Positions 5,870-39,718 of a DNA stretch of 64,000 bases are shown here, piece after piece. The notes beneath the pieces are model-generated. The model saw only the letters and a list, made by a program, of their open reading frames with translations. It did no database searches and was not told where the DNA came from. The DNA comes from Acidimicrobiia bacterium (GTDB lineage Bacteria > Actinomycetota > Acidimicrobiia > Acidimicrobiales > Aldehydirespiratoraceae), in contig JAJEHD010000017.1 of NCBI GenBank assembly GCA_022819505.1, positions 1,516 to 65,515 on the forward strand, written 5' to 3'. Made by a program: the position numbers and the translations under genes. Position 1 is the stretch's first letter. Each line of letters starts with the position of its first letter.

Positions 5870-5870
5870 T

Positions 5871-8667: not shown

Positions 8668-8755
8668 GTGGGTCGCACCGGGAGTCCGGTCGGTTGATGG
8701 CGGTCAACGACACTATTCTGGATGTGGCAAGGCGCTACCGGGAGGATCAACGGCC

Positions 8756-9605: not shown

Positions 9606-9630
9606 CGTCCGTTAGAATTTTCGTTAGAAA
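9606..9630. repeat. CGTCCGTTAGAA motif pair next to tRNA-Pro (third locus of this motif)
   Basis: cgtccgttagaa (9606-9617) plus tcgttagaaa (9621-9630). The same motif occurs at 5399-5428 and 8646-8663. Confidence 0.6.
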
Positions 9631-9701
9631 TTTGGGCGATCCCAGAGTTATCCACAGGTGAGCCTGGATCAGAAATGTACTCTTACCTTGGATTTTATCT
9701 G

Positions 9702-9776
9702 TCGGGCTGGGGAGATTTGAACTCCCGACCTTCGGTCCCCCAGACCGACGCGCTAACCAAGCTGCGCCACAGCCCG
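9702..9776 (-). tRNA. tRNA-Pro (anticodon GGG)
   Basis: Hand-folded 75-nt cloverleaf: acceptor CGGGCTG/CAGCCCG, D stem GCGC/GCGC, anticodon stem TCGGT/ACCGA with loop CTGGGGG, T arm GGGAG-TTCAAAT-CTCCC, discriminator A. CCA is not encoded. Confidence 0.9.
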
Positions 9777-9795
9777 AATGGGCTGAGGCTAGCGG

Positions 9796-10008
9796 CTACA
9801 GCAGGAGGGCGACACCCTGCACGGCCCGCCAGGCTAGGTAGACCGTGGCCGCTCCCAGCAGCAGCCAGAAGTGCCACGGGATGCGCTCCGCCACCGGTGC
9901 GGAGGGCTCGGGCGGATGCTGGACCTCGGCGCCGCAGCCGGGGCAGGCGCCCTCAGATGTGAGGGTGGACGGCGTCAGGTATCGCTCGCAGGACTGGCAC
10001 CATGCCAT
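9796..10008 (-). CDS. Small zinc-ribbon membrane protein
   Basis: 70 aa with CxxC...CxxC (CQSCERY...CPGCG) followed by one TM helix (WHFWLLLGAATVYLAW). Confidence 0.45.
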   Translation of the reverse strand: MAWCQSCERYLTPSTLTSEGACPGCGAEVQHPPEPSAPVAERIPWHFWLLLGAATVYLAWRAVQGVALLL

Positions 10009-10012: not shown

Positions 10013-11110
10013 TCAGTCGCGGCGGATGGCCATGATGGCGGTGTCGTCGCCTATCGACCCGCCTGCGAAGTCCTTGGCCGCGTCGAGCAGCGACTTGCAC
10101 AGCACGTCGGGGGCGGCGTTGAGGTCGCGCTCCACCGACTTGATGATGCGGGCCTCGCCGAACATCTGCCGGCCGGCTCGGGCCTCGGCCAGGCCGTCGG
10201 TGTACATCACCACCAGATCCCCCGACACCATCGGGATCTCCCGGGAGAAGTACGTCGAACCCGGGTCGAGCATCAGCAGCGGGCCTGTCGAGCGCAGCGG
10301 CATCACCCCGTCCGCCTGGAACAGGAACGCAGCCGGGTGACCGGCCGACGAGTAACGCAGCGTCCCGGCCTCGGTGTCGAACACCACCACGCACGCCGAG
10401 ATGAACTCCTCGTTGCGGTCCCCGGCCGAGAGCTGGGCGTTGATCTCTTCGAAGGCCTGGGCCGGGTCGCGGAACTGCCTAAGGAACACCCGCAGCAGGT
10501 ACTTGGCCTGGAACGCGGTGATGGACGACTCGATGCCGTGGCCGGCCACATCGCCGATCACCGCGGCCACCCGGTGGCGCCCCACCCGGTGCACGTCGAA
10601 GAAGTCGCCGGCCATCAAACCCGAGCCGGCCTGGTAGACCCGGCCGATCTCGAAGCCGCTGAAGTCCGGGACCTCCTCGGGCGCCAATCGGGCCGCCCAC
10701 GCCTTCGGGGCGAGCTGCTCCTGCTCAAGCGCCTGCTCGGCCCGACGCTCCAGCCCGATGCGGTTGCGGGCCATGCGGGCCTCCTCCACCGAGGTGCGGG
10801 CCCACCACACCGACAGCAACGCAGGCAGAGCCAGAAGCCCGAGCACCACTGCGACGTTGGCGGCGTCCACCCGGCCAATCAGCAGAGCCACCGGCACCAG
10901 CAGCGCGTAGACGATCACGCCGTGGATCTCCTTGCGCAGCGAGGTCATGGCCAGGATCCGCGCTTCGGGATGCGCGCCGGCGTCGGCCTCGACCAGGCGC
11001 AGGACCCGCAGCCGGTGACGAGCCGAGCGGATGTAGAAGATCATGGCCAGCGCGCAGGACAGGGCCAAGAGATCGAGAACGATCGTTCTCACACGCACCC
11101 CTCCCCGCAC
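10013..11110 (-). CDS. Membrane-anchored PP2C/SpoIIE-family serine phosphatase
   Basis: N-terminal TM helices, then GDFFDV...VIGDVAGHGIESS...VVMYTDGLAEA, typical of SpoIIE/PP2C. Confidence 0.8.
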   Translation of the reverse strand: MRGGVRVRTIVLDLLALSCALAMIFYIRSARHRLRVLRLVEADAGAHPEARILAMTSLRKEIHGVIVYALLVPVALLIGRVDAANVAVVLGLLALPALLSVWWARTSVEEARMARNRIGLERRAEQALEQEQLAPKAWAARLAPEEVPDFSGFEIGRVYQAGSGLMAGDFFDVHRVGRHRVAAVIGDVAGHGIESSITAFQAKYLLRVFLRQFRDPAQAFEEINAQLSAGDRNEEFISACVVVFDTEAGTLRYSSAGHPAAFLFQADGVMPLRSTGPLLMLDPGSTYFSREIPMVSGDLVVMYTDGLAEARAGRQMFGEARIIKSVERDLNAAPDVLCKSLLDAAKDFAGGSIGDDTAIMAIRRD

Positions 11111-16509: not shown

Positions 16510-17624
16510 CGGAACGCGGTGCGGATCCGGCCCAGCAGGCCCTCACTCGGCTCGGCGACCTCCTCGCCCCGCAGCTCGGCCAGCCGGCGCACCAGCTCCT
16601 CCTGCTCGTCGCTGAGGTCGTCGGGAACGTCGACCACCAGACGGATCAGCAGATCGCCGCGGCCCCGGCCCCGCACATGGGGCACCCCTCGGCCCCTCAG
16701 CCGTAGCACCGCACCGGTCTCGGTCCCCCTGGGCACCGCGATGGCCTCGGTGCCGTCAAGCGTCTCGTACTCGAGCCGGGCCCCCAGCGCGGCCTGCGTG
16801 AACGGCACGTGCAGCTCGTGCACCAGGTCGCTGCCCTCCCGATGGAAACGAGGATGGGGCCGGACCCGGGTGTGGACATACAGGTCGCCGTGGGCACCGC
16901 CGCGGGGCCCGGCCGCCCCCCTGCCGCTGAGGCGCAGCGTGGTCCCGTCGTCGACCCCCACCGGGACCTGGACGCTGTAAGTGCGCCGCTCGAGCCTGCG
17001 CCCGTGGCCGTCGCACTCCCCGCACGGCTGCTCGATCATCTCGCCGAGGCCGCCGCAACGGTCGCACGCCCCGGCTGTGACCATCTGGCCCAGCATCGAC
17101 TGCCGAACCTTGCGAACCTGGCCGGAGCCGCCGCACTGCGAGCACCGCACCGGCGAGGTCCCAGCCTCGGCGCCGCTGCCGTCGCATGACTCACAACGCA
17201 CCGCGGTGCGCACGCTGACCTCCCGCTCGGCACCGAACACCACGTCGCTGAGCTCGAGGTCGACGTGGGTCTCCAGGTCCTCGCCGGGGGGCGGCCCGTG
17301 GTGCCTGGGCGAGGAGCCGAAGCCGCCGAAGGGAGAGTCGGAGCCGAAGAAGGCGTCGAAGATGCTGCCCAGCCCCCCGCCGAAGGGATCGGCGGCACGG
17401 GCCGCGTTGGGGTCGTCGGTGCCGAACCGGTCATACAGGGAGCGCCGCTCGGGATCCGACAGCACCTCGTAGGCCGCGCTCACCTCCTTGAAGCGGGCCT
17501 CGGCATCGGAGTCGTCCGGGTTGGCGTCGGGATGGTAGCGGCGGGCCATCTTGCGGTAGGCCCGCTTGAGCTCCTCGTCGGTGGCGTCGCGGTCAACGCC
17601 CAGAGTCTCGTAATGGTCCGCCAT
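16506..17624 (-). CDS. dnaJ: Chaperone DnaJ
   Basis: J domain (YETLGV...YHPD), G/F region, and four CxxCxGxG zinc motifs. Confidence 0.95.
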
Positions 17625-26664: not shown

Positions 26665-26737
26665 GGGGCTATAGCTCAGTTGGTAGAGCGCTTCCATGGC
26701 ATGGAAGAGGTCAGGGGTTCAATTCCCCTTAGCTCCA
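26665..26737 (+). tRNA. tRNA-Ala (anticodon GGC)
   Basis: Hand-folded 73-nt cloverleaf: acceptor GGGGCTA/TAGCTCC with the G3:U70 pair, anticodon stem CTTCC/GGAAG with loop ATGGCAT, T arm AGGGG-TTCAATT-CCCCT. CCA is not encoded. Confidence 0.9.
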
Positions 26738-26905
26738 CCCCTCAAATCACATAAGCAGAGGTCAGAGGCTATAAATGGCGTAGTCACCGGCTCTGTATGT
26801 TGCTTTTGTTGTCACTATCGGGCCGCGAAGAGGCGGGCGGGAGCGCGTGCTGTCAGTCTCGGAACCAGGGCTGGGGCGGCTACGGCCCAGGCAGCGAGTG
26901 GTGGC

Positions 26906-27787
26906 TTACAGGAACAGGCCTGGGTCGCCGCGTCCGGCCTGAGGGTCCTGTCGGGTGCGTTGTTGTTGGATGATGTGTTGTTGGCGCAGCCGGTGCAGTT
27001 CGCCCGGTTCGAAGCAGTTGCTCCAGCGGTCGCGCTCTTCGGTGACGTAGCGGTCGACGCGCTCGAAGATCTCGTCGAAGTCGGCTTGTAGGGGGAGTTG
27101 GCCTTGTTGTTGGAGGTCGCGCCAGGCTCTGGCAATGCGGTCGCGGCGTCCGAGGTAGGTGCTGCGGATATCGGCGGGATGGTTGCGATGGCCGTACTCG
27201 CGGGCGGGGTCGTTGTAGCTGTCGGCGTACATGTCCCACGCCTTGGCGAAGTCCACTTCTGGTGATCGGGCGAGCTGGTCGAGGTCATAGATGTCGCGTG
27301 GCGCGCTTCTGCGGGACAGGCAGCGCAACTTGTCGGCGGTGACCGCGGTGGCGGTGTATCCCAGAATGGGCGCCGCGTCGGGACGTGTGCCCCAACGCGC
27401 GTTGATGGGCCACAGCTGGGTGGGAACCGATGAGGGCTCGGTCAGCAGGGTGGCTTCGGCGCGGATCGGTGCCGGTGTCGCCTCGGCGACGATGTTGACG
27501 TTCACCGCGCCGGCGGTTTGGGTTGTGAGTGGGGTACCGACGCTGGCTGCGGCTCGCGTCGCGGCGGCATCGACTAGCGCCCGGAACTGTTGGGGTGAAC
27601 CGGCCCAGTCGAAGTCGAGATCCTCGGACCAGCGGTAGTCCTCGAACACGCAGACCCGCAACAGGGTCCCACCCTTGAACACCAACCGGTCGTCGCCGGC
27701 CTCTGCGAGCGCCGCGACGACATGATGCAAGATCGCGTCGCGGCGGCTGTGGGCGTCGAAGCGCTGGATGCTCACAGCCGAGTTCAA
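26906..27787 (-). CDS. AbiEii/AbiGii nucleotidyltransferase toxin (type IV TA), copy 1
   Basis: FKGGTLLRVCVFEDYRWSEDLDFDW signature. Its start overlaps the stop of the upstream AbiEi-like gene. Confidence 0.8.
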   Translation of the reverse strand: MNSAVSIQRFDAHSRRDAILHHVVAALAEAGDDRLVFKGGTLLRVCVFEDYRWSEDLDFDWAGSPQQFRALVDAAATRAAASVGTPLTTQTAGAVNVNIVAEATPAPIRAEATLLTEPSSVPTQLWPINARWGTRPDAAPILGYTATAVTADKLRCLSRRSAPRDIYDLDQLARSPEVDFAKAWDMYADSYNDPAREYGHRNHPADIRSTYLGRRDRIARAWRDLQQQGQLPLQADFDEIFERVDRYVTEERDRWSNCFEPGELHRLRQQHIIQQQRTRQDPQAGRGDPGLFL

Positions 27788-28554
27788 TACAGCAGGTGCT
27801 CGGCAAGCTCAGCGGGTGTGGTGTGCCACCAGACCCGCCGACGGCGATCCAACATCACCGCGGTGTCCTGGGGCTCCCGGGGGTCAAGTCCCAGCCACCG
27901 CTCCCCTGACCCGGCCCGCTCACACAACGCTGCGTGGGCGCGGTCAACCGCCACCAACGGCCGCGCGTACGCCGGTATCGGACCTTCACTCGCCGCGACC
28001 GCGGCCAGAGCTTCCGCCACCGACGCGACCCGTCGCAGCCCCGCGCGCCAACCAAGCTGCGCCGCCACCGCGGCCAACTCCTCAGGATCAAACAACTGCG
28101 GCGACTTCGACAGCGCCTGCGCAATGATCTCATCGGCACCAACAACCCACCACGCGTGCTGAGCGCACTCCAACAACGCTCGCGCCGGCGTCGACATCCA
28201 CGTGTCGGCACCAACCTCCACAGCAGCCACCGACAGCGTCGCCGAACCCTCAGCCACATGACGCCACCCACCGCGGCGGGCCTGCCCATACCACGCTCCC
28301 GGCGCGCTAACCGTCACACCAGCCATCAACGCCATCCCCCCCAAAGACAACGCGCTGCGATGCGAGATACGCCTAGGCACACGCCCATACACCTCCCTCA
28401 GCCGCCGCTCAAGAGACTCAGACAGAACCGAACCGCCGACCCTGGCCAAAGCAGGCAACCCTGGAGCTCCCCCAAACCCCGAACCAGAACACACCATCAC
28501 ATCAGACACACCACACCCCCCTTCTGCCGCTACACGCCCCAACCCTACCCGCAA
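27784..28554 (-). CDS. AbiEi-like antitoxin, copy 1 (appears to lack the N-terminal wHTH)
   Basis: Shares TWMSTPARALLECAQH and QLGWRAGLRRVASVAEAL with copy 2 (31318-32169). TTG start. 256 aa. Confidence 0.6.
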   Translation of the reverse strand: MRVGLGRVAAEGGCGVSDVMVCSGSGFGGAPGLPALARVGGSVLSESLERRLREVYGRVPRRISHRSALSLGGMALMAGVTVSAPGAWYGQARRGGWRHVAEGSATLSVAAVEVGADTWMSTPARALLECAQHAWWVVGADEIIAQALSKSPQLFDPEELAAVAAQLGWRAGLRRVASVAEALAAVAASEGPIPAYARPLVAVDRAHAALCERAGSGERWLGLDPREPQDTAVMLDRRRRVWWHTTPAELAEHLLY

Positions 28555-28826
28555 GCCACAGATACCTCATCGCCTCGGCGCGCCACAAGCAGCCAATAGC
28601 CGTTGATCGCTCACACCAAGGCTGCCGACAGAAGCGACACGACATGCTGGCAGGCCTTCAGAACCTCACCACGAAACAAACCCACAACGGCCGCCTGTGG
28701 ACCAACCAAGTGGTCGTCATCTAAGTGCCGTTTGCAAACCGCGGTGGCAACGGGCCTATCATCAAAGCGGCCTGACGGCTCCGGTTAGTAGGCTCCGGCT
28801 GAACAAGACCGTACGCCCCAGGTGAC

Positions 28827-28859
28827 GGGACCCCGGACCGCACGGGGTCCCTTTCTTTT
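28827..28859 (+). terminator. Intrinsic terminator with no annotated upstream gene
   Basis: GGGACCCCG-GACCGCA-CGGGGTCCC followed by TTTCTTTT. Confidence 0.65.
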
Positions 28860-29005
28860 GTGCTGCCTACCGCTGTCTATGAGGTGGCGACGGTCCTGAC
28901 ATGTCTCTCGGTGTGGACGTCCGGACCTGTGCGCGCAGCAAACAAGAGCGGGAGCACCTGCCGCCTCGGCCGGCCAGGGGCCGACTGGACGCACGTCGGA
29001 CCTAC

Positions 29006-29011
29006 TAGGGT
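29006..29011 (+). promoter_or_regulatory. Candidate -10 element (TAGGGT) for a leaderless transcript starting at GTG 29019
   Basis: Fits TANNNT and lies 7 nt upstream of the GTG. No SD is present. Confidence 0.3.
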
Positions 29012-29018
29012 CGTATCA

Positions 29019-29468
29019 GTGAATGACGTGAACTTTCCCCCACAGGCGCCTGGAGGTGGCGAGCGGCGGGTGGGGCCGCTGCTGGCACGGCGGTATGTGG
29101 TGGTGGGCGAGCTGCCCGCGTTGATGGCGATCCCCGGGCGCGGCGCCGGCTACTTGCCGGTGGTGCAGTTCATCAAGGACTGGAACAATCAGCCCGAGTC
29201 AAGAGAGCTCATGCTCGCTGGTGGTCTTCGCGCAGGCACCGACCCAACGGCTGCGGTGAAGGTGGCGGCGGTGGTCCATGCTTTGTGCCAGCGCGACGCC
29301 CACCCGTTGCCGGAGTGGGTGCCTGCGGCGCGCTCGCCGGTTGATATGACGTTGGTGCCCGATGTGGACTTGGAGTCTTCCTATGGGCAGCGGCTGCGCC
29401 GTGACGCCCCTGGGGTGTGCCATTACCACGGGGTCTACTTCTCGGTTGTGGACCTCCGCTCGACGTGA
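29019..29468 (+). CDS. Hypothetical protein, putative antitoxin partner of the downstream nucleotidyltransferase
   Basis: Its stop overlaps the downstream GTG (GTGA at 29465-29468). No family recognised. The start is uncertain because the ORF is open from 28860. Confidence 0.4.
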   Translation: MNDVNFPPQAPGGGERRVGPLLARRYVVVGELPALMAIPGRGAGYLPVVQFIKDWNNQPESRELMLAGGLRAGTDPTAAVKVAAVVHALCQRDAHPLPEWVPAARSPVDMTLVPDVDLESSYGQRLRRDAPGVCHYHGVYFSVVDLRST

Positions 29469-30139
29469 CCGACTTCGGGTCGCCTATCCCGCCCGATCCG
29501 CTGCTGGGCGCGGCGGACATCCGGCGCATGTTCGACAAGCTGTCGTCGCATCTGAACGACGCTGGCTCCACGGGTCACCACCTGATGATCGCCGGCGGTG
29601 CGGCGTTGGCGCTGATGTGGGAGAACCGGCTCACCCACGACATCGACGTTCCCGAGCATCGCTTCCGCGCCCCGACCGACACCGACGCTGAGCGGCTCAC
29701 CACCGCGGTGGACTTCATCTCGATGCGGTTCCCCGCCGAGCTGGCCCGCGCCGCCCGTATGGTCGCCGACGCCGAGGGCCTACCACGCAACTGGCTCAAC
29801 GGCGCCGTTGCGATCTTCACCCCCGCCGGCGACCTCCACCCCCAGATCCTGCACCAAAGCGACTGCCTCACAGTCGAGGCACCCTCCCCCACGGTGCTGT
29901 TGGCCATGAAGCTGCACGCGGCGCGCCCGTTGGACCTCCAAGACGCCGCCCGGCTGACCCGAGACACCGCGATCACAGACCCCGACCAGCTGCTCGGGCT
30001 GGTCGCGGACGCGTACGGCGCCGACGTCGCCACCGCAGAAACCGCCGACTTCGCCCACCGCGCCCTGGAGCTCGCCCTGGACCAGAACCACGGCAGAAGC
30101 CGGCGGCTGCCGGGCCACGGATTCGGCGTCGGACTCTGA
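29465..30139 (+). CDS. Minimal nucleotidyltransferase-fold protein (DUF6036/AbiEii-related), putative toxin
   Basis: LMIAGGAALALMWENRLTHDIDV (hG[GS]...DxD NTase core) and TVLLAMKLHAARPLDLQDAARL. Confidence 0.55.
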   Translation: MTDFGSPIPPDPLLGAADIRRMFDKLSSHLNDAGSTGHHLMIAGGAALALMWENRLTHDIDVPEHRFRAPTDTDAERLTTAVDFISMRFPAELARAARMVADAEGLPRNWLNGAVAIFTPAGDLHPQILHQSDCLTVEAPSPTVLLAMKLHAARPLDLQDAARLTRDTAITDPDQLLGLVADAYGADVATAETADFAHRALELALDQNHGRSRRLPGHGFGVGL

Positions 30140-30148
30140 CCACGCTAC

Positions 30149-30168
30149 GGGACCGTTACCGCGGTCCT
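30149..30168 (+). terminator. Weak hairpin after the NTase gene
   Basis: GGGACCG-TTACCG-CGGTCCT, 10 nt after the stop. Only TT follows. Confidence 0.3.
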
Positions 30169-30607
30169 TGAGAGGCTGTCGCCGTCGGCCAACCCGGGAG
30201 TCACCCGCATCCTGCTTGAGGCCGGTCCCAAAGAGAGTACAGACTACTATAAGGTGCGGCATCGGTTGGTACTCGCTTACACGCACAGAGTGGCACCTAT
30301 CGCAGGTGGGAGCGCATCACCGACGGCTTCCCGGTGTGACGTCGCGGCCGCGTCATCACGTCGAGCTTTCGCACAACTCCACAGCGGTGCCCCGGCGCGA
30401 TCCGCGAACCCGCCCTGACCCGATGAGCCACCAACCCCGCCCCAACCGCCAGGCCCGGCGCACCGGCAATCCCGGCCGACACAACACGGCCCGCCCCCGA
30501 GCCGAACTCGAACTGACCAAGTACCCAGAACCACAGGTCCCGTTCCCGAGACGGACCGAAGGACCACACATCGAAACAGACCTCGTTTCAACAACAAGGA
30601 GGAAGCA

Positions 30608-30811
30608 ATGTCTCTAGACACCGGCGACGAGATGCCCGCAGAGGTGCTGCGGCCCCGCGAGGCAGCCCGATACGTGGGCATGAGCCGACCCACGATTGAT
30701 CGCTGGCGCAAAGCCGGCAAGTTCCCCAAGGCGCTACAACTCGGCGCTCAGGCCATCGGCTGGCGCCGCTCCGACCTTGATGACTGGCTCAACAGCAGGC
30801 CATCGGTGTGA
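30608..30811 (+). CDS. AlpA/excisionase-type HTH protein
   Basis: LRPREAARYVGMSRPTIDRWRKAGKFPKALQLGAQAIGWRRSDLDDWL. SD AAGGAGGAAG. Confidence 0.8.
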   Translation: MSLDTGDEMPAEVLRPREAARYVGMSRPTIDRWRKAGKFPKALQLGAQAIGWRRSDLDDWLNSRPSV

Positions 30812-30911
30812 TGACCGACCGTGCCGTCTGCCCGTGCCCGCCGCCGGATAGGCCAGGGTTGGGCCGCCAGGTGTCGCAGCGCGATTGACGGCGACGGTGC
30901 GGGGAGCTGAG

Positions 30912-31133
30912 ATGTCATCGCGGGTCTCTGCTGAGTCAATGTTGCGAGTGCCAGAGGTGCTTGACCTCGTCGGCGTCAGTCGCCGAACGTTGTGTCGATG
31001 GCGCGCAGATGGCACGTTCCCCCAGGCGCTGAGGCTGGGCGCGAACTCCATCGGCTGGCCCCGTCACGTCGTCGATGAGTGGCTCGCCAACCGGCCCCTC
31101 GCTTGCTCTGACGCCCCTGCATCACCTGCCTGA
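30912..31133 (+). CDS. AlpA/excisionase-type HTH protein
   Basis: LRVPEVLDLVGVSRRTLCRWRADGTFPQALRLGANSIGWPRHVVDEWL. ATG 30912 has GGGGAG upstream. Confidence 0.75.
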   Translation: MSSRVSAESMLRVPEVLDLVGVSRRTLCRWRADGTFPQALRLGANSIGWPRHVVDEWLANRPLACSDAPASPA

Positions 31134-31282
31134 GAGCACTCTGGCCCACGCATCGACCAAGCCCCTGTGGGAACGTCCGCGACGATTCGGGGGGGATTGC
31201 GTGACGGCGAATGCGAGCGCAGCTTGTGGCTATCGGGCAGCGGTGGGCTGCGGTGGCAGCGGGGGATCGAGCGACCGTGATG

Positions 31283-31319
31283 TATGTTTCTCATATCGGC
31301 TCTGGTATATTTCTCGTAT
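31283..31319 (+). promoter_or_regulatory. AT-rich promoter/operator candidate of AbiE copy 2
   Basis: Direct 14-mers TATGTTTCTCATAT (31283-31296) and TATATTTCTCGTAT (31306-31319) match at 12/14. TATATT lies 6 nt before the ATG, suggesting a leaderless transcript. Confidence 0.4.
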
Positions 31320-32169
31320 GGGCTCTGTCGAGGTATTGGAGCGTCTGGCGCCGGTGTTTTTGACGCGGGAGTTCGAGCGGGCGGCTGGGGTGCGGCCGTC
31401 TTCGGCGTCGCGGGCGCTGGGCGAGTTGGCAGCTGTGGGCCGGGTGGAGAAGATCCGCCGGGGGACGTGGCGCAACTTCGTTGTCTCATGGCCGTCCGCG
31501 GCCGAGCTGTTGGTCGGCGCGGGCTCTGTTTCTCATCACTGGACCGCGCAGTGGGAAGCGGAGCTGGAGGCGGCCTACGGCAGCGCTGTTCGACGGATCT
31601 CAGGTCTGACCGCTTTGGGGATGGCGGGGGTGGCGTTGATCTGCCGGCCAGAGGTCAGCGTGGCCGGCGGCGTCGCGTTCGACACCGGCGCGTTCGGGTT
31701 CGTGTCTTGGCGCGAGCGCCCGGAGTCGCTGCTGGTGGCAGCGGTGCAGCTGACCGAGCACACATGGGTGTCGACTCCGGGGCGGGCGGTGTTGGAATGC
31801 GCCCACTGGCCGCACCGCTCGCACCGCTGGGAGGAGTATCTGGGCCGCATGCTGGCCTACCGCTTCGAGGTGTGCCCGCCAAGCGAGGTCGCCGCCGCAG
31901 CCGACGCCTTGGGATGGCGCGCCGGCCTGCGGCGGATCTCGTCGTTGGCGCAAGGCCTGGCCGAGTCCCCCACAGGGCAAAGTCTGGGGTTCGACATCGA
32001 CCGCCGGTGGGCCGAACTGGGCTCCGCGGCGGTTCGCGGCGACGACTGGATACACCTCACGCCGCTGCGCCGCACCGCCAGCCCGCCCCGCGTCGCGCAC
32101 CGAGACACGGCCCGCAAAGTCAACTGGGCGGCTGCCCCCGACGCTGTCGCGGCTGTGGTCTCGACATGA
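31318..32169 (+). CDS. AbiEi antitoxin (type IV TA), copy 2
   Basis: N-terminal wHTH pattern (ALGELAAVGRVEKIRRGTWRNF) and TWVSTPGRAVLECAHW. The stop overlaps the AbiEii start (ATGA). Confidence 0.7.
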   Translation: MGSVEVLERLAPVFLTREFERAAGVRPSSASRALGELAAVGRVEKIRRGTWRNFVVSWPSAAELLVGAGSVSHHWTAQWEAELEAAYGSAVRRISGLTALGMAGVALICRPEVSVAGGVAFDTGAFGFVSWRERPESLLVAAVQLTEHTWVSTPGRAVLECAHWPHRSHRWEEYLGRMLAYRFEVCPPSEVAAAADALGWRAGLRRISSLAQGLAESPTGQSLGFDIDRRWAELGSAAVRGDDWIHLTPLRRTASPPRVAHRDTARKVNWAAAPDAVAAVVST

Positions 32170-32978
32170 GCGGGCCGACCAGCCGGCACAGCAGATGGGA
32201 GCCGGTCGACCTGGTCCAGCACCAGATAGTCTCCGCGGTCGCGGCGCGCCAACAAGGCGTCCCGCGGGTGATGTTCAAGGGCGGGACTCTGCTTCGGGTC
32301 TGCTACCGGCGCGACTGGCGGTTCTCAGAAGACCTGGATTTCGACTGGATCCACGCCGACGACACCAAGCCAGCCATACAGGACTTCTTTGACCGAGTCC
32401 TCAACACAGCGTCGAGGACTTACCGGACCGCGTTCGACACGAAATGGGGCGCCAACAAACTCAACATCTACTGGGAGCTGCCCAACGCCACGACCGGCGT
32501 CATCTACACCGACGTGAAACCCCGCCAGCACCCCGGTGCCGGGCCCACCGCCGCGCACTGGACCATCCTGGACAGATACCCACAAGTCGACACCACCAAC
32601 CCCATCTTGGGATACTCGCCAGCTTCGATGCTGGCAGCAAAACTCGACTGCATCGCGAACCCCTACCGGCTCGCACCACGCGACTACTACGACCTGAACC
32701 GCCTGCTCCAAGACCCCTCGATAGACACCAACGCGGCCCTCGACGAGTTCACCGCACGCCACCAAGCCGCACACCCCGCCACAGCAGGCCGCGACTGGTT
32801 CGACATCCTGTTCGACAACGCATACCAACACGAAGCAGAACTCGCCGAAAGATGGACCGAGATCACCCGAACAGGCATGATCCAAGACCCACACCAGAAC
32901 TTCGCCGCCATACTCGACACCGTCACCGACGCCACACAACACGCCCTCGACGACTACACAGCCACAACCACAAACTGA
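32166..32978 (+). CDS. AbiEii/AbiGii nucleotidyltransferase toxin, copy 2
   Basis: FKGGTLLRVCYRRDWRFSEDLDFDW. This is the C-terminal part of the listed 564-aa ORF, whose N-terminal part is out-of-frame overlap with AbiEi. Confidence 0.8.
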   Translation: MSGPTSRHSRWEPVDLVQHQIVSAVAARQQGVPRVMFKGGTLLRVCYRRDWRFSEDLDFDWIHADDTKPAIQDFFDRVLNTASRTYRTAFDTKWGANKLNIYWELPNATTGVIYTDVKPRQHPGAGPTAAHWTILDRYPQVDTTNPILGYSPASMLAAKLDCIANPYRLAPRDYYDLNRLLQDPSIDTNAALDEFTARHQAAHPATAGRDWFDILFDNAYQHEAELAERWTEITRTGMIQDPHQNFAAILDTVTDATQHALDDYTATTTN

Positions 32979-32979
32979 A

Positions 32980-32997
32980 AACCGCCAGTCGGCGGTT
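32980..32997 (+). terminator. Hairpin just after the AbiEii copy 2 stop
   Basis: AACCGCC-AGTC-GGCGGTT with a weak T tract. Confidence 0.35.
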
Positions 32998-33150
32998 CAA
33001 TGTGCTCTATCTCGTATCCCAGGCTTGTGATCACCAACGGACACGCATTCGCGCCAACTGAAGCGTGCCAGCGATAGCCAGGCCGCGGATGTAGTCAGTC
33101 AGCGCCCTCACGGCGCTGACCCCTATCCCGGTTCGCATGGTGGTGGACGC

Positions 33151-34335
33151 TCAGTGCAGGTACCTGCACCAGTCCTCCATCAGTGGGCGGCGGCGTTCCA
33201 GCATGTCGGACCGGGCGTAGGCCCGTTCGGCGGAATCTCGCACGACGTGGCCGAGCGCCATCTCGGCGAGGTCTCGCGCAACGGCCGTGTCTGAGCACCA
33301 GGATCGGAAGCAGCTTCTGAATCCGTGGGCGGTGGCGTCGATGTCGTGGTCGCGCAGCAGCTTGTTGAAGGTGGAGTCTGACACTGCTCGACCGGTTGTC
33401 GTGCTGGGGAGCACGAGACCTTGGCCGTGGTTGAGGCTTCGGGCTTCGGCGAGGACCTCCAGCGCTCGGCTGCTCAACGGCACCCGGTGTGAGACGCCGG
33501 TCTTGGTCCGCGTGGCTGGGATCTCCCACACCCGGTTGTCGATGTCGAACTCTGACCAGTCGGCGAAGCGGACTTCGCCGGAGCGGGTCGCGGTCAGCGC
33601 GAGCAGCTCCAGCCCGAGCCGACACGCCGGGGTCGCGTTCGACTTCCTCACCCGGTCAAGGGCGTCGGCTACTTCGCTGTGGTGGAGGGCGCGGCGGTGC
33701 TCGACCTTGTGGCGGTGCTTGGGCATTGATGCCTTGGCCGCGGCGGTGGGGTCGCTGTCGCGCAGGTCGCGACCCATCGCCCACTGCATCGTGGTCGAGA
33801 TTCTGCGGACAGTGCGGCGGGCCAGTTCGGGGCGGTCCCACACCCGGTCGAGCACCGACACAACGTCGGCGGCGGCCACGTCGGCTACCGGCATCGGGCC
33901 GATGGTGGGGTCGATGTGGTTCTCTAGCAGCGCCCACCACTGGCGCTCGGTGTTGCTGGTGGCCTTCCAGTTCGGGCGGTGCAACAGGATCACCTCGCGC
34001 ATGGCGTCCGCGAAGGTGACTGCATGGCGACGGCGGGGATCGCGGCCTTCCTCTACGGCCTGCCGGTTCGACAAAGCCCGTTCACGGGCCAGCGCCAACG
34101 ACACGGCGGGGTAGGAGCCGAGGCCGAGGCTGACCGTCTTGCCGCCGATGCGGAGGCGCTGCGCCCAGGTCTTGGACCATCTGCCGTTGGCGGTGGTCTT
34201 GACCAGTAGGCTCAGCCCGTGGGAGCCGCGGCCGTCGCCGTAGCGTCCGGGCCGGTTGATCGTGCGCACGAAGGCGGCGGTCAGCACCTTCGGCCGAGAG
34301 GGACTTGAACTCGTGGATACCTTTTTCATTACCAC
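33151..34335 (-). CDS. int: Tyrosine recombinase/integrase (P4-like, DUF4102-type N-terminus), int1
   Basis: GRYGDGRGSHGLSLLV...LGSYPAVSLALARERA arm-binding domain. Catalytic blocks ATRSGEVR, HGFRSCFRSW, LGHVV...AYARSD. Confidence 0.9.
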   Translation of the reverse strand: MVMKKVSTSSSPSRPKVLTAAFVRTINRPGRYGDGRGSHGLSLLVKTTANGRWSKTWAQRLRIGGKTVSLGLGSYPAVSLALARERALSNRQAVEEGRDPRRRHAVTFADAMREVILLHRPNWKATSNTERQWWALLENHIDPTIGPMPVADVAAADVVSVLDRVWDRPELARRTVRRISTTMQWAMGRDLRDSDPTAAAKASMPKHRHKVEHRRALHHSEVADALDRVRKSNATPACRLGLELLALTATRSGEVRFADWSEFDIDNRVWEIPATRTKTGVSHRVPLSSRALEVLAEARSLNHGQGLVLPSTTTGRAVSDSTFNKLLRDHDIDATAHGFRSCFRSWCSDTAVARDLAEMALGHVVRDSAERAYARSDMLERRRPLMEDWCRYLH

Positions 34336-34442
34336 TTCACGTCTGACAAAGGACGCTATATGGGAGCCCGGCGGGGTACAACCAGTCGCCCGGAATAGTG
34401 CTCTTAACAGGGCATTTTGACGTTGGATTATGGCATTACACG

Positions 34443-34499
34443 GCGTCCGGCGGCGCTACTTCCCACAGGTAGGGTTCGATGCTCACCCCGGACGCACCA
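34443..34499 (+). other. tRNA-like relic ending in ACCA (possible vestigial attachment site of int1)
   Basis: GCGTCCG (34443-34449) pairs perfectly with CGGACGC (34489-34495), which is followed by ACCA. The internal GGTTCGAT is T-loop-like. No D arm and no canonical anticodon arm. Confidence 0.4.
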
Positions 34500-35445
34500 G
34501 CGCTACAACGATCCGGTCGAGGGGTCTTGCCCCCCTTCCGAAGGCGGCGCTGTAATTTCGCTTGGCGGGTCGCACCTGGCCGCGTCGGCCAGCTCCCCCA
34601 CCCCACAACCCAACGCCTCACGAGCTGCGCGCAACAGAACCCCGGCGAGGTCTGCCGCTCGCTGAGAACGCAGAAGTCACGAAATACACCGTTGTCGCTG
34701 TAGCGTTCGCGAGCGTTCCTCAGCGTTCCTCGGGCCCTCGGACGGCTCCGGCGGCGGCGTGTCGGCCCGCCATTATTGGCGGACGCGCACCCTTTGTGAC
34801 CTCGGCGGGCTCTTTAGTGCAAGCGTGTGGTGGCCAGACTGACCCAGAAACGCCGTCGCGAACGGTCCCCACCAACAACGGAGCCCGAACGACCTCCGAC
34901 ACCACCGGACACAGCCCCAACACCGAACTCCGAGCCCCGCCGCTCAACAGCCAGGAACGCAACCCGAATGACGAGGAATACAACCCTCAACGACCCACCG
35001 TTCCCCTTGCAGAGCACCCCACCGGGCAGGGCGGGTCGACCGCCGCCCTGGGCCTGGGCTGCCTTGCAGCGGTCGAACCGCCAAGGCTCTCTCGGGGAGT
35101 TCGTCGCTTGCAGCGGTCGACACCGTCCCGAGGCGGGATCACCCGACTCGGGCGGCCCCGCTGGGCCGTTCGACCTCGCCGGTCTTGACAAGACGAGCCG
35201 CCGAGACGACAGCGAACTGTGCATCACGCGCCCCGGCAGGCGCCACCACCGGCCTCTCCTACCCGATCCCTTCCCGCTGCCAACACCAAGTGTTGGGTCG
35301 CGTTCGAGCAGGTCAGCACAGGTGCGTTCGCGAGCGTTCGCGTCTCGTCTCTAGGTTGCGGGCATGGCTCAGCACTGCCTGACCCACACGACAGGCGGCT
35401 CACAGCTGGTATCAAGGCACCCAACGCTCCCACCGGAGGAAGTCC

Positions 35446-35643
35446 ATGCTCGCGACCTCACGACCCGAACACCAGATTCTGCGGGTCGCCGACCTCCAAG
35501 CCCAGCTAGGGCTGTCAAGAACAACCATCTGGCGCCTCCGCCGAGCGGGCGAGTTCCCCCAGCCCATCCGACTCAGCGCCAACGCCGTCGGCTGGCCCAC
35601 CCACCTCATCGACGAATGGCTCACAGCACGTCCCGAGGCATGA
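35446..35643 (+). CDS. AlpA/excisionase-type HTH protein
   Basis: LRVADLQAQLGLSRTTIWRLRRAGEFPQPIRLSANAVGWPTHLIDEWL. SD GGAGGAAG. Confidence 0.8.
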   Translation: MLATSRPEHQILRVADLQAQLGLSRTTIWRLRRAGEFPQPIRLSANAVGWPTHLIDEWLTARPEA

Positions 35644-35877
35644 CTACAAGCACAACCTCGCTCAAGGGCCCACCAACGGGCCTCGATCCGATAGCGAGAT
35701 CTACTCAATGTCGAGGGTCCTGCCCTCGTCACGCAGAACCACCGCCCCATTGAAGTCGCACACGGTGGTCAAGGACCATCTCAGGCACTCCGAGCCCGAT
35801 GAGCGCAGGATCCCCGAGTGCTACCGCCGCCGTCGCCCGCTGCAACTACTCTCGACGCTGTGTCAAGCCCCGCCACC

Positions 35878-36078
35878 ATGACGGCCATCACCGCCCCCGC
35901 GGCCTCTGCGGCAGAGGCCCTGGAGCCCTGCGAGAGAGCGATCCTGTCGGTGCTGCGCTTGTGGCCACGCGGCGCCGCCGAAGCCGCGGTCGCTGACCGC
36001 GCCGGCCTCGGCACCACCACTGCAGCGCCTTCTTGGCGGAGTCGTCGTCCTCAGGGAATCGGCAGAGTTGATGCCTGA
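35878..36078 (+). CDS. Small winged-helix-like protein (hypothetical)
   Basis: 66 aa. EPCERAILSVLRLWPRGAAEAAVADRAGLGTTTAA resembles the small wHTH proteins of actinobacterial mobile elements. No SD. It ends 30 nt before the 718-aa ORF. Confidence 0.3.
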   Translation: MTAITAPAASAAEALEPCERAILSVLRLWPRGAAEAAVADRAGLGTTTAAPSWRSRRPQGIGRVDA

Positions 36079-36108
36079 ACAGGGCCGTTGGGCCCGAGCT
36101 AGTAGTCG

Positions 36109-38265
36109 ATGTCAATTGCACGCACCGATGTAAGAGTGGGGCTTGGCCCGGCCCGCGGCGCCTACCTCGTTAGGGCCGGCGATCGACGGGGATTTGTCGC
36201 GGCGATTCAGACGGCGTCGACACGCTGGGGAGGCGTGACGGAGCCCATCATTCCTGTAAGGGCCTCTGGACGAATCGACGACATGTGGGTGCAAGTCGTC
36301 AAATGCAGTGGCGTCCACGGGCTGATCAATGTGAGCGTTGCGCCCAGCGCAGCAGCGACAGCGCAGCGGCGACTTGGCCTACGACTCATCGACGTGAGAG
36401 ATCTTGACCTCGATGCGCTACTTGGACGCACCCTGTATCCGACCGCTGTGTCCCCAAACGACGAGGAGTGGAAGCGCAGGGCTGTGCTGCTTGCCGACGA
36501 ACACGCCCCGCTGTGGCTGAAGGTTGCGCTAGGCACGTTCCCGCCAGGACATCAGCAGTTCCGGCATCCCCTACCGGAAGCCATGATCTTAACGACGGAC
36601 ACTCAGGGCGATCTCGACCGCGCCATAGGTGCGCAGGTTGACCACAATACTTGGCTCGATTTTGGGGCGAACTCACTGGGAGCCTTCTTAACCGGCGGCC
36701 AGCTGGGCTTCACGCCGGTAATGGTGTGGATGACTCGTAGAGACAATCTGCGTGATTGTGTCTTCTTCTGGAATCTGCGTGCGCTCCGGTCTCTGAGGTT
36801 CTTTGTACTGACACCGATGTTGCTGTTGCCGCAGGGTCTACAGGTCGATTGGCAACGACTAGGGCGTGTGATTGCTCGGAACATTCCGTCGTGGAGCGAT
36901 CATGAGCCGAGTGTCCTAATGGGTTCACTCGCTGTCGAGGAGAACATTCTTAAGGAAGTCGCTGGCCTGCTCGATTTGGTTCCGACATCAAGTACGCCTG
37001 TTCCTGGTCAGATTTCAGGTCCGCGAGGCGTACCGGGCCCTCCTTATTCGTTCTGGATAGGACGGACGCCGCAAGACTACTTTCGGTTCACACGCTTCTA
37101 TGGGGTCGCCGCTGGAACGGTCGCACAGATGCACGGGCAGGACGGCCGCATCGAGTTTCCGTCACCTGTCGGTTTTCGTGCACCAGGACGATTGATCGCT
37201 CGTGTCGAAACGCAGCTTCTTGACGGGTTGCCGCGGCGACCTGTCATTGCGTCGATGGTCCACTCGGGTGCTCAGTGGCATCAGGACAGCTTGCAGGTCG
37301 ATGTGAACACACAGGAGCGTTATCGCATCCCCATTCAGGTACCGACCCTCGAACAAGCTGCTCGAGCACTGCTGGAGAACGCCTGTGATCGAGCAGAGGT
37401 CTCAGACAAGGGCAGATTAGGTCGGAGGCTCCTTGAGATGGGCGGCCATCGTCTACTCCTAGACGAACAGGTTCGCAATACAGCTGCGGAGCTGGTGACT
37501 CGCCGATCGAATCAGTTGCTCAAGGAGCTGTCACGCCTGCGCGATGAAGACCGACCTGATGAGGATCTAGTGCAACTGGCTCAGCGATGGGGAGGCACGC
37601 AGCAGCGTCGCTATCGCTCAGCCTCAGACCTTCGTAGCGTAATCGGCAAGACGGCGGGCGCAAGCGCGGAAAAGTTATGCACAGCAGGCTGGGCCGAGCG
37701 CGGTCTCGGTATCGACTGCGCACATTGTGGAATCCGCAGTTTCGTAGCCCTAGAGCAAGCGTTCGCTGCGCCGACGTGTCCGGCGTGTGGTGCTAGCCAG
37801 CCATACAAGGTCAACGCCAGCACTGGGGTGCCTGAGATGCACTATCGCTTGGGCGCCCTGATCGACCGTGCCGCAGATCAGGGCGTCGTGTCGCACCTGC
37901 TCGCTATTGCCGTACTCGAGGAAGCCTATGAGCGCTCCTTCCTGATTCCGGGCGCCAGTATCTGGTTCTCAGACGGTACTGAGCGCGAGGTCGATCTATA
38001 CGGTGTGTGCGACAGCATGGTCGTAGCTGGCGAGGCTAAAACGAGCCCTAGGTCCTTCAGCGACGATGACACCGCAAGGCAGGTTGAACTGTCAGCAACG
38101 CTCGGGGCGGATACCCACCTGATGGCTGCAACCGGCAAGATTGCTGGGGCAGCCATCAATGCCGCGAAGCTCAGCGCCATGTGTCACGGCATCGGCCTGA
38201 TCGTGATCGAAGGAGAGAGCATGCGCACACTCGCGCTGCCGCAACAGCAGGACAAAGACGCCTAA
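36109..38265 (+). CDS. Large uncharacterised island protein with C-terminal zinc ribbon and PD-(D/E)xK-like motif
   Basis: 718 aa with no family recognised. C537-x2-C540-x16-C557-x2-C560, then EVD629LYGVCDSMVVAGE642AK644. Clean single long ORF, less GC-rich than its neighbours. Confidence 0.6.
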   Translation: MSIARTDVRVGLGPARGAYLVRAGDRRGFVAAIQTASTRWGGVTEPIIPVRASGRIDDMWVQVVKCSGVHGLINVSVAPSAAATAQRRLGLRLIDVRDLDLDALLGRTLYPTAVSPNDEEWKRRAVLLADEHAPLWLKVALGTFPPGHQQFRHPLPEAMILTTDTQGDLDRAIGAQVDHNTWLDFGANSLGAFLTGGQLGFTPVMVWMTRRDNLRDCVFFWNLRALRSLRFFVLTPMLLLPQGLQVDWQRLGRVIARNIPSWSDHEPSVLMGSLAVEENILKEVAGLLDLVPTSSTPVPGQISGPRGVPGPPYSFWIGRTPQDYFRFTRFYGVAAGTVAQMHGQDGRIEFPSPVGFRAPGRLIARVETQLLDGLPRRPVIASMVHSGAQWHQDSLQVDVNTQERYRIPIQVPTLEQAARALLENACDRAEVSDKGRLGRRLLEMGGHRLLLDEQVRNTAAELVTRRSNQLLKELSRLRDEDRPDEDLVQLAQRWGGTQQRRYRSASDLRSVIGKTAGASAEKLCTAGWAERGLGIDCAHCGIRSFVALEQAFAAPTCPACGASQPYKVNASTGVPEMHYRLGALIDRAADQGVVSHLLAIAVLEEAYERSFLIPGASIWFSDGTEREVDLYGVCDSMVVAGEAKTSPRSFSDDDTARQVELSATLGADTHLMAATGKIAGAAINAAKLSAMCHGIGLIVIEGESMRTLALPQQQDKDA

Positions 38266-38385
38266 CTGGTGGCCCGTGCTTCGCGTAGTCGGTGGTGCGC
38301 CCCGTGTTCCGCGCGGCCGGGTTGTTTGATCTCCGACGGTGTGTTGGCGTGGCGCAACTCGTAGCCGAGGAGAGCGAGCATGTAG

Positions 38386-39558
38386 CTAGGTGATGTACTG
38401 GCCCCAGGCGTTCATGACCTCGCGGCGTTGCTCTAGCAGGTCGGAGCGCCGGTAGGCGGCTTCTACGGTGTTCTTGACGACGTGGGCTAGGCACGACTCG
38501 GCCAGCTCGCGGCTGACGGCCGACTCGGCGCACCAGTCGCGGAATGATGAGCGGAGGCCGTGTGGGGTCATGCCCAGGTCGAGGTCGTGGCAGAGTTTGG
38601 AGAGGGCTTCGGGAGTGATCTGCCGGCGCCGTGCCGAGGGAAAGACCAATGAGTCGGGAGCGCCGTCGCTGTATGGGCGTGCCTCGTCGAGCACGGTGAG
38701 CGCCTCGGGGCTTAGCGGGACCCGGAAGTCGCGGCCGACCTTGGTGCGCTGGCCTGGGATCGTCCAGGTGTCGGCCTCGATCTCGTTCCAGCGCATGCCG
38801 CGGACCTCTCCGGAGCGGGTCGCGGTCAACGCCAGCATCCACATGGCGAGCTTCGTGGTTGGGTAGGCGGCTGAGGCATCGATGGCCGCTAGCGCGGCAG
38901 GCACCTGGTCCGGCGGCAGTGCGGCGATGTGGCGGCGGGCGACGCCGTTGCGGGGCAGCGCCGCCAGCAACGCCTCGCCGGCGGGATCGTCGACACGGTG
39001 TCCGGCGGCCATCGCCCATCGGAACGCCAAAGAGAGCCGCTGGCGAACCTTCTTGGCAGTGTCGTGACGGTCGGTCCACAAAGGCCCGATGACTCGCAGC
39101 ACGTCTGCGGTATCGATCTGGTCAACTGGGCGGTGAATTAGGTTGTCGGCGTGGTTGCGGACGCTGTTGCGCCAGATCTCAGCCGAGCGGCCGCCGTTCT
39201 TCCACGACCCCGAGCGTGCCTCGATCACGGCTTCAAGCGCGTCGGCGAGGGTCGGGGTCGGGTTCTCGGTGATGCGCGGGTCGATGCCTTGGTCGATTTT
39301 GCGGCGGTTGTCCAGCGCCCGCTCGCGTGCGGTGGCCAGTCCCACCACCGGGAACGATCCCAGCCCCAAGTTGGTGGCGCGGCCGTTGATGCGGAGTCGC
39401 TGAACCCAGATCTTCGACAGCCGGCCGTTGGTTGTGCGCCGCACCCGCAGGGTGAGTCCGTAGCCGCCGCGGCCGTCGCCGTAGACACCGGGCCGGTTGA
39501 CCTGCCGCACGAAGGTCGCGGACAGTGGCAGACCGGCCCGCGAGTTCGATTCTCTCAC
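38386..39558 (-). CDS. int: Tyrosine recombinase/integrase, int2 (paralogue of int1)
   Basis: GVYGDGRGGYGLTLRV...LGSFPVVGLATARERA. Catalytic blocks ATRSGEVR, HGLRSSFRDW, LAHVV...AYRRSD. It lies about 145 nt from the att repeat. Confidence 0.9.
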   Translation of the reverse strand: MRESNSRAGLPLSATFVRQVNRPGVYGDGRGGYGLTLRVRRTTNGRLSKIWVQRLRINGRATNLGLGSFPVVGLATARERALDNRRKIDQGIDPRITENPTPTLADALEAVIEARSGSWKNGGRSAEIWRNSVRNHADNLIHRPVDQIDTADVLRVIGPLWTDRHDTAKKVRQRLSLAFRWAMAAGHRVDDPAGEALLAALPRNGVARRHIAALPPDQVPAALAAIDASAAYPTTKLAMWMLALTATRSGEVRGMRWNEIEADTWTIPGQRTKVGRDFRVPLSPEALTVLDEARPYSDGAPDSLVFPSARRRQITPEALSKLCHDLDLGMTPHGLRSSFRDWCAESAVSRELAESCLAHVVKNTVEAAYRRSDLLEQRREVMNAWGQYIT

Positions 39559-39564
39559 TTCTGG

Positions 39565-39692
39565 GTGTCACTTTCTCTGTCGCGAATGTCACTTGATGGG
39601 ATGCTACGCCCTGCAACCGGCTGAAACGGGGATACGCCCTCTCACCTGCGAATATAGGTGACACAAAGCGACAAACTGCAACCCGCTGAAAC
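39565..39692. promoter_or_regulatory. Candidate arm-type recombinase binding sites between int2 and the att repeat
   Basis: 17-nt direct repeat CTGCAACC(G/C)GCTGAAAC at 39611-39627 and 39676-39692. TGTCACT at 39566-39572 and 39587-39593. Inverted GTGACAC at 39658-39664. Confidence 0.45.
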
Positions 39693-39700
39693 CCCGAATA

Positions 39701-39718
39701 AATTCTCCTTAGCTCCAC
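39701..39718 (+). repeat. att repeat: copy of the tRNA-Ala 3' end (right island boundary)
   Basis: aattcTccttagctccac matches the tRNA at 26719-26736 (aattcCccttagctccac) with one mismatch. Confidence 0.8.

Follow-up and report, generated by a model that had tools for sequence, protein, structure and literature searches.

What does a large gene with no named relatives do as the cargo of a mobile integrase module, and does it act alone? The question is posed by a 718-amino-acid (aa) open reading frame (ORF) at positions 36109 to 38265 (+ strand) of a 64,000-nucleotide (nt) stretch of contig JAJEHD010000017.1 (positions 1,516 to 65,515; assembly GCA_022819505.1) from an Acidimicrobiia bacterium. 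This stretch is hereafter called the window, and window coordinates are used throughout. An initial annotation, made from the letters of the window and its ORFs, had singled out the 718-aa ORF as a candidate defense gene with a possible C-terminal nuclease core, and had joined it to a small ORF immediately upstream in a two-gene cassette. As detailed below, the gene belongs to an unannotated family of ~700-aa proteins and moves alone; its C-terminal third is predicted to be a nuclease of the Can2 type, and the upstream ORF is the truncated remnant of another gene.

As originally reported, the 718-aa ORF is the largest real gene of the island and uncharacterized: scans of the full protein against Pfam, NCBIfam, and PADLOC gave no match. 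PDB sequences, searched once with the protein itself and twice with profiles, yielded insignificant coiled-coil and zinc-ribbon matches at most. Homologues were nonetheless numerous. A word-indexed search returned 38 clusters (90% identity), each of them full length at ~700 aa and none with a name beyond "hypothetical," and an exhaustive HMMER scan of 1.84 billion representatives recovered 737 clusters (50% identity) at an E value of ≤1e-3, 216 of them at ≤1e-30. Among the best 150 HMMER clusters, nearly all have the same length and align end to end. Every motif is retained in distant members of 716 to 805 aa from organisms of low GC content (hhalign probability, 98.9 to 99.7%). With 737 homologous clusters at E ≤1e-3, the 718-aa ORF is a real gene and not a chance ORF.

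The family is patchily distributed. A survey of 185,579 species genomes, with one genome per species, identified 65 loci, mostly in Actinomycetota (Streptomyces, Lentzea, Embleya, Kitasatospora, Amycolatopsis, Frankia, and Acidimicrobiia), with single loci in other phyla. Some genomes have two copies of the gene, and one Streptomyces has copies in both chromosome arms. In Streptomyces sp. NBC_01538 (loci L012 and L013), the homologue is found at either end of the chromosome (positions 122591 and 10161478 of 10.3 Mb), where it evidently forms part of the terminal inverted repeats. A 3.1-Mb plasmid of Embleya sp. NBC_00896 has two copies, one of them frameshifted. Decay is frequent more generally, with frameshifts in 6 of 57 near-full-length genomic copies and fragments alone at 6 loci. 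In the window, the GC content at third codon positions (GC3) of the 718-aa gene is 0.63 versus 0.85 in the adjacent integrases and neighboring host genes, and its overall GC content is 0.60 versus about 0.70 in the surrounding sequence. Because both values lie below those of the surroundings, the gene is foreign and was acquired horizontally.

The clearest clues to function lie in the C-terminal third. Residues 501 to 582 (37609 to 37854, +) form a winged-helix-like unit with a four-cysteine zinc ribbon, the cysteines C537, C540, C557, and C560 being encoded at 37717 to 37788. The C537xxC540-x16-C557xxC560 pattern picked out in the initial annotation is present, and its four cysteines are invariant in 36 homologues. 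They are preceded by the motif WAERG (residues 528 to 532), of which E530, R531, and G532 are invariant in the same number of sequences. A lenient Pfam scan gave sub-threshold zinc-ribbon matches in 32 of 52 C-terminal domains, and weak zinc-ribbon matches for this part of the protein were also obtained in PDB and BFVD.

Residues 583 to 712 (37855 to 38244, +) correspond to a predicted PD-(D/E)xK-type nuclease domain, with the E627-K644 core encoded at 37987 to 38040. The second pattern of the initial annotation, E627-V-D629-x12-E642-A-K644, is likewise present and at least 90% conserved both in 36 and in 52 sequences; other conserved columns of the C-terminal third include D590-Q-G592 and G641-E642-x-K644. 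An AlphaFold2 model of the full protein had a mean predicted local distance difference test score (pLDDT) of 89.5 and a predicted template modeling score of 0.84. In this model, residues 583 to 712 show the order alpha-beta-beta-beta-alpha-beta (helix 583 to 606; strands 610 to 619, 625 to 634, and 637 to 644; helix 652 to 664; strand 669 to 674), with pLDDT values above 90. D629 is located on the second core strand (625 to 634) and E642-x-K644 on the third (637 to 644), which is the canonical PD-(D/E)xK arrangement. The early suggestion that the pattern was compatible with a PD-(D/E)xK nuclease core is thus supported by both its conservation and a confidently modeled fold. By conserved motif and predicted structure, residues 583 to 712 can be placed in the PD-(D/E)xK superfamily, with D590/Q591, E627, D629, E642, and K644 as the putative catalytic residues.

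Structure comparisons, which covered PDB and a viral structure library, point to a specific branch of this superfamily. In a Foldseek search of PDB with the full model, the only matches with a probability of about 1 were Cdn1 with cyclic tetraadenylate (cA4) (9u49; E value, 2.8e-4), VC1899 (1xmx), and Can2 (8bao, 8q43, and 7bdv). On the basis of motif and topology, we attribute these Can2-family matches to the nuclease domain, for which they are the best and only significant structural matches. Against viral structures the full model had no full-length relative, with weak matches to small PD-(D/E)xK proteins and CxxC-CxxC ribbons; in the lenient Pfam scan, weak matches to Hjc were seen in 4 of 52 C-terminal domains and to NERD in 2 of 52. 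The active-site network of Cdn1 comprises E274, E308, D310, E323, and K325 (PMC12825302), and the E-x-D-x12-E-x-K spacing of E308/D310/E323/K325 is identical to that of E627/D629/E642/K644. The 718-aa protein accordingly displays the E..E-x-D..E-x-K active-site pattern of a Can2-type nuclease domain. Sequence and model together suggest that the C-terminal third is a zinc-ribbon winged helix followed by a divergent PD-(D/E)xK nuclease that most resembles the Can2 type.

The N-terminal ~500 residues were left unassigned in the initial annotation, and the Pfam and PDB-structure comparisons gave no assignment either. Secondary structure and invariant columns delineate two alpha/beta lobes (residues 1 to 130 and 131 to 300; 36109 to 37008, +), followed by a beta-rich domain (residues 313 to 412) and a helical domain (residues 413 to 500), the latter two encoded at 37045 to 37608 (+). 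In residues 1 to 300, R16, Y19, R39, W40, G42, E45, N74, W221, N222, R224, and W248 are invariant, and E45-P-I47, W207, and W221-N222-x-R224 are invariant or nearly so (36-sequence alignment, with which wider sets agree), as reflected in the motifs TRWGGxTEPIIPV and DCxxFWNLRALR. The invariant residues of the beta-rich domain are R329, G332, P375, and W390 (including R329-x-Y-G332), and those of the helical domain S432, G435, and L462, with K434, T464, and R466 near-invariant (S432-x-K-G435 and T464-x-R466). The lenient Pfam scan of 52 N-terminal halves revealed no recurrent family even at E ≤5, and a profile search with the N-terminal 500 residues retrieved the same architecture and no other. 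Residues 1 to 312 were also modeled separately (pLDDT, 82.8). In the Foldseek comparison of this model with PDB, the best match was to the CWB2 domains of Clostridioides difficile SlpA (E value, 8e-4; template modeling score, about 0.35; root mean square deviation, about 11 Å), and nothing resembling CARF, SAVED, or TIR was found. The matches to SlpA CWB2, racemases, periplasmic binding proteins, and adenylating enzymes were rejected as assignments, being weak and of the tandem alpha/beta kind. We propose residues 1 to 300 as a sensor or regulatory module.

The genomic behavior of the family is that of a solitary mobile gene. All-against-all clustering of the ORFs within 6 kb of the 65 loci disclosed no conserved neighbor except tyrosine integrases (18 + 4 loci). 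These lie on either side and on either strand of the family gene; neighbor identity, spacing, and orientation vary. A tblastn search with four query integrases found 10 of 61 loci, an under-count since clustering found 18 + 4. At L005, L009, L044, L046, and L049, the family gene is situated between a tRNA gene and an integrase, either alone or with at most one small ORF. Three contexts that encode one and the same protein, P0002, the closest homologue of the 718-aa protein, have only a 2,636-bp block in common, made up of the gene with flanks of about 260 bp (upstream) and 250 bp (downstream). The family gene thus moves alone, without a conserved partner.

At the borders of the P0002 block are short dispersed repeats (215 bp and about 110 to 150 bp; L001, positions 7740 to 7954 and 10375 to 10525), which recur several times in the same contig, some of them inverted (2018 to 2232, 2690 to 2831, 3748 to 3899, and 16849 to 16998). 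These may be elements resembling miniature inverted-repeat transposable elements that mediate movement of the gene. Two family proteins have integrase-like extensions, of the arm type at the N terminus of P0032 (980 aa) and with the sequence HTLRHDF at the C terminus of P0027 (842 aa). Probably these are gene-call fusions with adjacent, partly degraded integrase genes, and they show once more the tight linkage of the family to integrases.

As to the company kept by the gene, the commonest Pfam families among 141 flanking ORFs were Phage_integrase, rve, DDE transposase, and pSAM2 RepSA; Mrr_cat and BrxL occurred as well. PADLOC models matched MADS components, BrxL, PD-T4-6, type I S subunits, and several candidate systems among the flanking ORFs. 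In the annotated contexts, the family gene was found beside BREX PglX/PglZ/BrxL, AIPR, and AAA_15/21; beside a type III restriction-modification (R-M) system and DUF4062; with an integrase and an HTH_17 gene; and with integrases, insertion sequences of the IS91 and IS21 types, and a caspase-like peptidase. The neighborhood survey hence places the homologues in mobile islands and beside defense genes, not in housekeeping contexts.

On balance, we take the 718-aa protein to be a stand-alone, mobile nuclease, most likely a single-gene defense against phages or other invading DNA. We infer its nuclease activity, substrate, N-terminal control, and defense role as follows. The C-terminal zinc-ribbon winged helix would bind nucleic acid, which the PD-(D/E)xK center would cut in a metal-dependent manner through D629, E642, and K644, while E627 and D590/Q591 would assist in metal binding. 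The N-terminal module would keep the nuclease off until an infection cue, either a nucleic-acid feature or a small ligand, is recognized. For this no partner is needed, and the gene travels in small tRNA-targeting integrase islands as their only cargo. A more far-reaching version, which we advance tentatively, is that the protein represents a new type of single-protein immune sensor, in which a hitherto unseen module of ~500 residues, with its invariant Arg/Trp/Tyr/Asn constellation, would recognize an infection signal beyond the known receptor domains and switch on a Can2-type nuclease.

Several observations weigh against a defense nuclease. The nuclease domain passes no curated sequence model, its assignment resting on motif plus predicted fold (Foldseek E value, 2.8e-4; template modeling score, 0.2 to 0.36), and no PADLOC v2 defense model matches the 718-aa family. 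Conservation is even across all six units (mean pairwise identity, 0.36 to 0.47), and there is no fast-evolving specificity region such as some immune sensors have. Many neighbors of the family gene are ordinary or unannotated, with the unannotated ones in the majority, and the defense neighbors seen at several loci are raw occurrences. A scan of the window for promoter and terminator consensus sequences was empty, a result that says little at such GC content.

The 718-aa protein resembles the single-polypeptide sensor-nuclease defenses (Shedu, Mrr-type, and Can2/Card1) but is a member of none. Like Shedu (SduA, DUF4263), it is the product of a single gene, its regulatory or sensing part lies N-terminal to a PD-(D/E)xK domain, and it is found in defense islands; the absence of a conserved partner is a shared property and not proof of membership. 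The Shedu-type relationship suggested in the initial annotation did not hold: no DUF4263 or Shedu model matched the 718-aa protein in Pfam or PADLOC or was among the 25 most frequent Pfam families in 52 C-terminal domains at E ≤5, and no Shedu structure was among the Foldseek matches listed, where the significant structural relatives were Can2/Card1/Cdn1 only. Moreover, the N-terminal module is unrelated to that of Shedu and is not variable between members. No described system with the architecture of the 718-aa family was found in the literature searched, and the family motifs were missing from the six validated Streptomyces systems and other candidates in the accessible part of the supplementary tables of 10.1101/2025.01.08.631966.

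Of the competing explanations, two stand at a similar distance from the proposed defense nuclease. According to the first, which is the main alternative outside defense, the protein would serve the mobile element itself, as a relaxase, a replication-initiation nuclease, or a maintenance (addiction or homing) nuclease, and not defense. Relaxases with a restriction-endonuclease fold do exist (MOBC type, e.g., TraX of pAD1 and MobC of CloDF13), and a protein with a winged helix, a zinc ribbon, and a nuclease would be well equipped for site-specific nicking. The gene is repeatedly the only cargo beside a tyrosine integrase and a tRNA gene, and pSAM2-type RepSA and insertion sequences occur near some loci. 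Many copies, however, have no integrase within 10 kb and reside beside BREX, R-M, or AIPR genes, and the 2.6-kb block moves without any integrase. The family has no Pfam match to relaxase or Rep families, and disrupted copies persist in islands. We therefore regard a role in the service of the element as rather unlikely.

About as improbable, in our estimation, is modification-dependent (type IV-like) restriction, a special case of defense in which the N-terminal module would read modified phage bases and direct the nuclease to them. The family shares with Mrr-type and other type IV enzymes a solitary nuclease with no methyltransferase partner, the combination of a winged helix with a PD-(D/E)xK domain, and residence on mobile islands. 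Its N-terminal module is conserved, not hypervariable, and has Arg, Trp, and Tyr residues that are invariant, as would befit the binding of a chemical ligand, for example, a modified base. Against this, the Mrr_cat, SRA, EVE/PUA, GmrSD, and McrBC models gave no match, no known modified-base reader was among the Foldseek matches listed, and the domain order and the 500-aa N-terminal module differ from those of the Mrr-type enzymes.

The likeness of the nuclease domain to Can2 raises a third option, namely, that the N-terminal module binds a cyclic oligonucleotide made elsewhere in the cell by a type III CRISPR system or by a synthase like those of cyclic oligonucleotide-based antiphage signaling systems (CBASS). 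The only significant structural relatives of the nuclease domain are indeed cA4-activated enzymes of the Can2 family, the order sensor then nuclease is common to both, and the N-terminal part is built of Rossmann-like alpha/beta lobes. Unlike Can2, Card1, and Cdn1 (DUF1887), however, the 718-aa protein has no match to CARF, SAVED, or DUF1887 models at the sequence level, nor to CARF or SAVED in the separate N-terminal model; it is twice as long, and the zinc-ribbon winged helix is inserted before the nuclease. No Cas10, CD-NTase, or other cyclase was found among the top families of the 141 neighbor ORFs, in the annotated contexts, or in the window, and the gene moves alone. Since neither a CARF/SAVED fold nor a cyclase was found, we consider activation by a second messenger in the manner of Can2 decidedly improbable.

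A housekeeping nuclease of DNA repair or recombination is effectively excluded. Repair enzymes include PD-(D/E)xK domains with zinc-binding elements, and the weak Hjc matches in 4 of 52 members might have pointed in that direction, but the patchy occurrence (65 loci among 185,579 species genomes), the foreign composition, the location in islands and terminal inverted repeats in multiple copies, the frequent pseudogenes, and the lack of a conserved syntenic neighborhood all speak against it.

Whether the gene works alone in the window also depends on the small ORF that precedes it. This ORF ends at 36078, 30 nt upstream of the 718-aa ORF, and comprises 86 aa if the GTG at 35818 is taken as its start and 66 aa if the ATG at 35878 is. 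Its relatives, 73 to 93% identical, are 116 to 148 aa long and follow AlpA in related islands; the intact ones give repeated weak winged-helix matches (TrmB/MarR/HTH_27) over residues ~15 to 73. When the window was compared by blastn with the related islands L071 to L074, identity was 85 to 90% over 35825 to 36026 and ended exactly at 36026. In all, the window shares AlpA (35427 to 35655) and the segment 35825 to 36026 with these islands at the DNA level; the homology stops 83 bp before the start codon of the 718-aa gene. The intact relatives P0182 to P0187 run past TTTAA as "...ALRRLLDAGLVVSSEE...RIVFWRL." The GC content at codon positions 1, 2, and 3 of the small ORF is 0.70, 0.72, and 0.72, i.e., there is no coding bias.

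Because homology to the intact relatives ends inside the ORF, at 36026, the small ORF is a remnant. The segment 35825 to 36026 (+) comes from a backbone winged-helix gene, of which it retains the stretch before the ATG at 35878 and, starting there, the initial ~50 codons; these read on into unrelated sequence and constitute a scar. The adjoining 82 nt (36027 to 36108, +) are the leader of the 718-aa gene, with a drop in GC content from 0.74 to about 0.63 at the backbone junction (36026/36027). The 66-aa winged-helix-like ORF of the initial annotation is hence where it was said to be, 30 nt before the gene, but is not an intact winged-helix gene, being truncated and devoid of coding bias. Neither did the proposed cassette survive, as none of 70 other homologue loci, including the three contexts of the 60%-identical P0002, has the small ORF upstream of the family gene. 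A functional partnership of the two ORFs was ruled out by the truncation, the missing coding bias, and the absence of the small ORF elsewhere. The weakest of all the alternatives, a two-gene cassette in which the 66-aa winged-helix protein is the regulator or antitoxin of the 718-aa protein, can draw on the 30-nt spacing on the same strand and on the winged-helix resemblance of the N-terminal half of the small ORF, but is effectively excluded by the end of homology at 36026 inside the DNA-binding region, by the findings just given, and by the intact winged-helix gene preceding AbiEii instead in the related islands.

The remnant also bears on the history of the locus. In L073, the order is AlpA, winged-helix gene, 118-aa ORF, and AbiEii (E value, 3.5e-12), with the winged-helix gene at the AbiEi position. 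As the initial annotation had recognized, the 718-aa gene occupies an AbiE-type cargo slot, since AbiE is found in the same slot of AlpA-integrase modules both here and in related islands. The two are not homologous, AbiE being a two-gene nucleotidyltransferase system, and the sole link is the truncated upstream remnant, which stems from the winged-helix gene found at the AbiEi position in L073. To judge from the sequence, the slot evidently held an AbiE-type cassette earlier, which was replaced by the 718-aa gene with its own leader; the first ~50 codons of the winged-helix gene are the scar left by this displacement. In L071 and L072 (6966 to 7351 and 1 to 508), the winged-helix backbone gene is present twice, before a 240-aa AbiEii gene and before an unannotated 248-aa ORF, and here too different cargos appear to have been exchanged downstream of the same 5′ gene segment.

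The module that carries the 718-aa gene is opened by an AlpA-family helix-turn-helix gene of the excisionase/regulator type (35446 to 35643, +; Pfam Phage_AlpA E value, 9.3e-13), which has 80 to 82% DNA identity to the AlpA genes of the related islands L073 and L074. Downstream of the 718-aa gene follow a tyrosine integrase of the P4/CP4-57 type (38386 to 39558, −; Pfam Arm-DNA-bind_3, Phage_int_M, and Phage_integrase) and an attachment (att) site, attR (39701 to 39718, +), which repeats 17 of 18 nt of the 3′ end of tRNA-Ala(GGC). The tRNA gene itself (26665 to 26739, +; ARAGORN; Rfam tRNA, 69.9 bits) was the sole match in an Rfam scan, and its 3′ end (26721 to 26738) forms the attL core of the composite island. 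The 18-nt tRNA-Ala 3′ end has two matches in the window (26721 to 26738 and, with one mismatch, 39701 to 39718) versus 0.01 expected by chance. Given the repeat at 39701 to 39718, the 718-aa gene belongs to a 13-kb composite tRNA-Ala island, of which its module is the last, and, flanked by AlpA and a tyrosine integrase within a tRNA-derived att repeat, is the cargo of an integrative island of the P4/CP4-57 type.

The composite island as a whole spans 26665 to 39718, from attL to attR, and holds three AlpA genes, two P4-type integrases, and three AbiEii-type toxin genes (26906 to 27787, −; 29417 to 30139, +; and about 32166 to 32978, +). It looks like a tandem accretion of small defense or toxin-antitoxin modules. 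No intermediate att site was detected between the two integrase modules at up to three mismatches, and the interval of ~1.1 kb that separates the first integrase from the next AlpA gene (34336 to 35445) contains no convincing gene and no recognizable tRNA-derived att core. Elsewhere in the window, a low-GC patch (5000 to 9800; 0.52 to 0.62 versus about 0.70) adjoins tRNA-Pro(GGG) (9701 to 9776, −) and has three ORFs without a Pfam match (5989 to 6657, +; 6692 to 7723, −; and 7659 to 8354, −). It may be another integrated element.

The locus clearly illustrates how the cargo of a P4/CP4-57-type integrase module can be replaced: an AbiE-type cassette gave way to the 718-aa gene, and a datable scar was left behind. 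What is new is a sizeable family of candidate single-gene defense nucleases with an unassigned sensing half. If the proposed role is correct, the family would constitute an unnamed defense family of several hundred sequence clusters, concentrated in Actinomycetota, whose antiviral repertoire is poorly charted, and the defense would work as a single gene and thus be directly testable. Its nuclease domain links the family to the CRISPR-associated Can2/Card1 effectors, while the sensing half is without a known relative, and the trigger of this N-terminal half could reveal a new cue for nuclease-based immunity. Should the protein prove to be an immune sensor of its own type, it would represent a CARF-independent route to a Can2-type effector, spread by minimal tRNA-integrating islands across the Actinomycetota and beyond.

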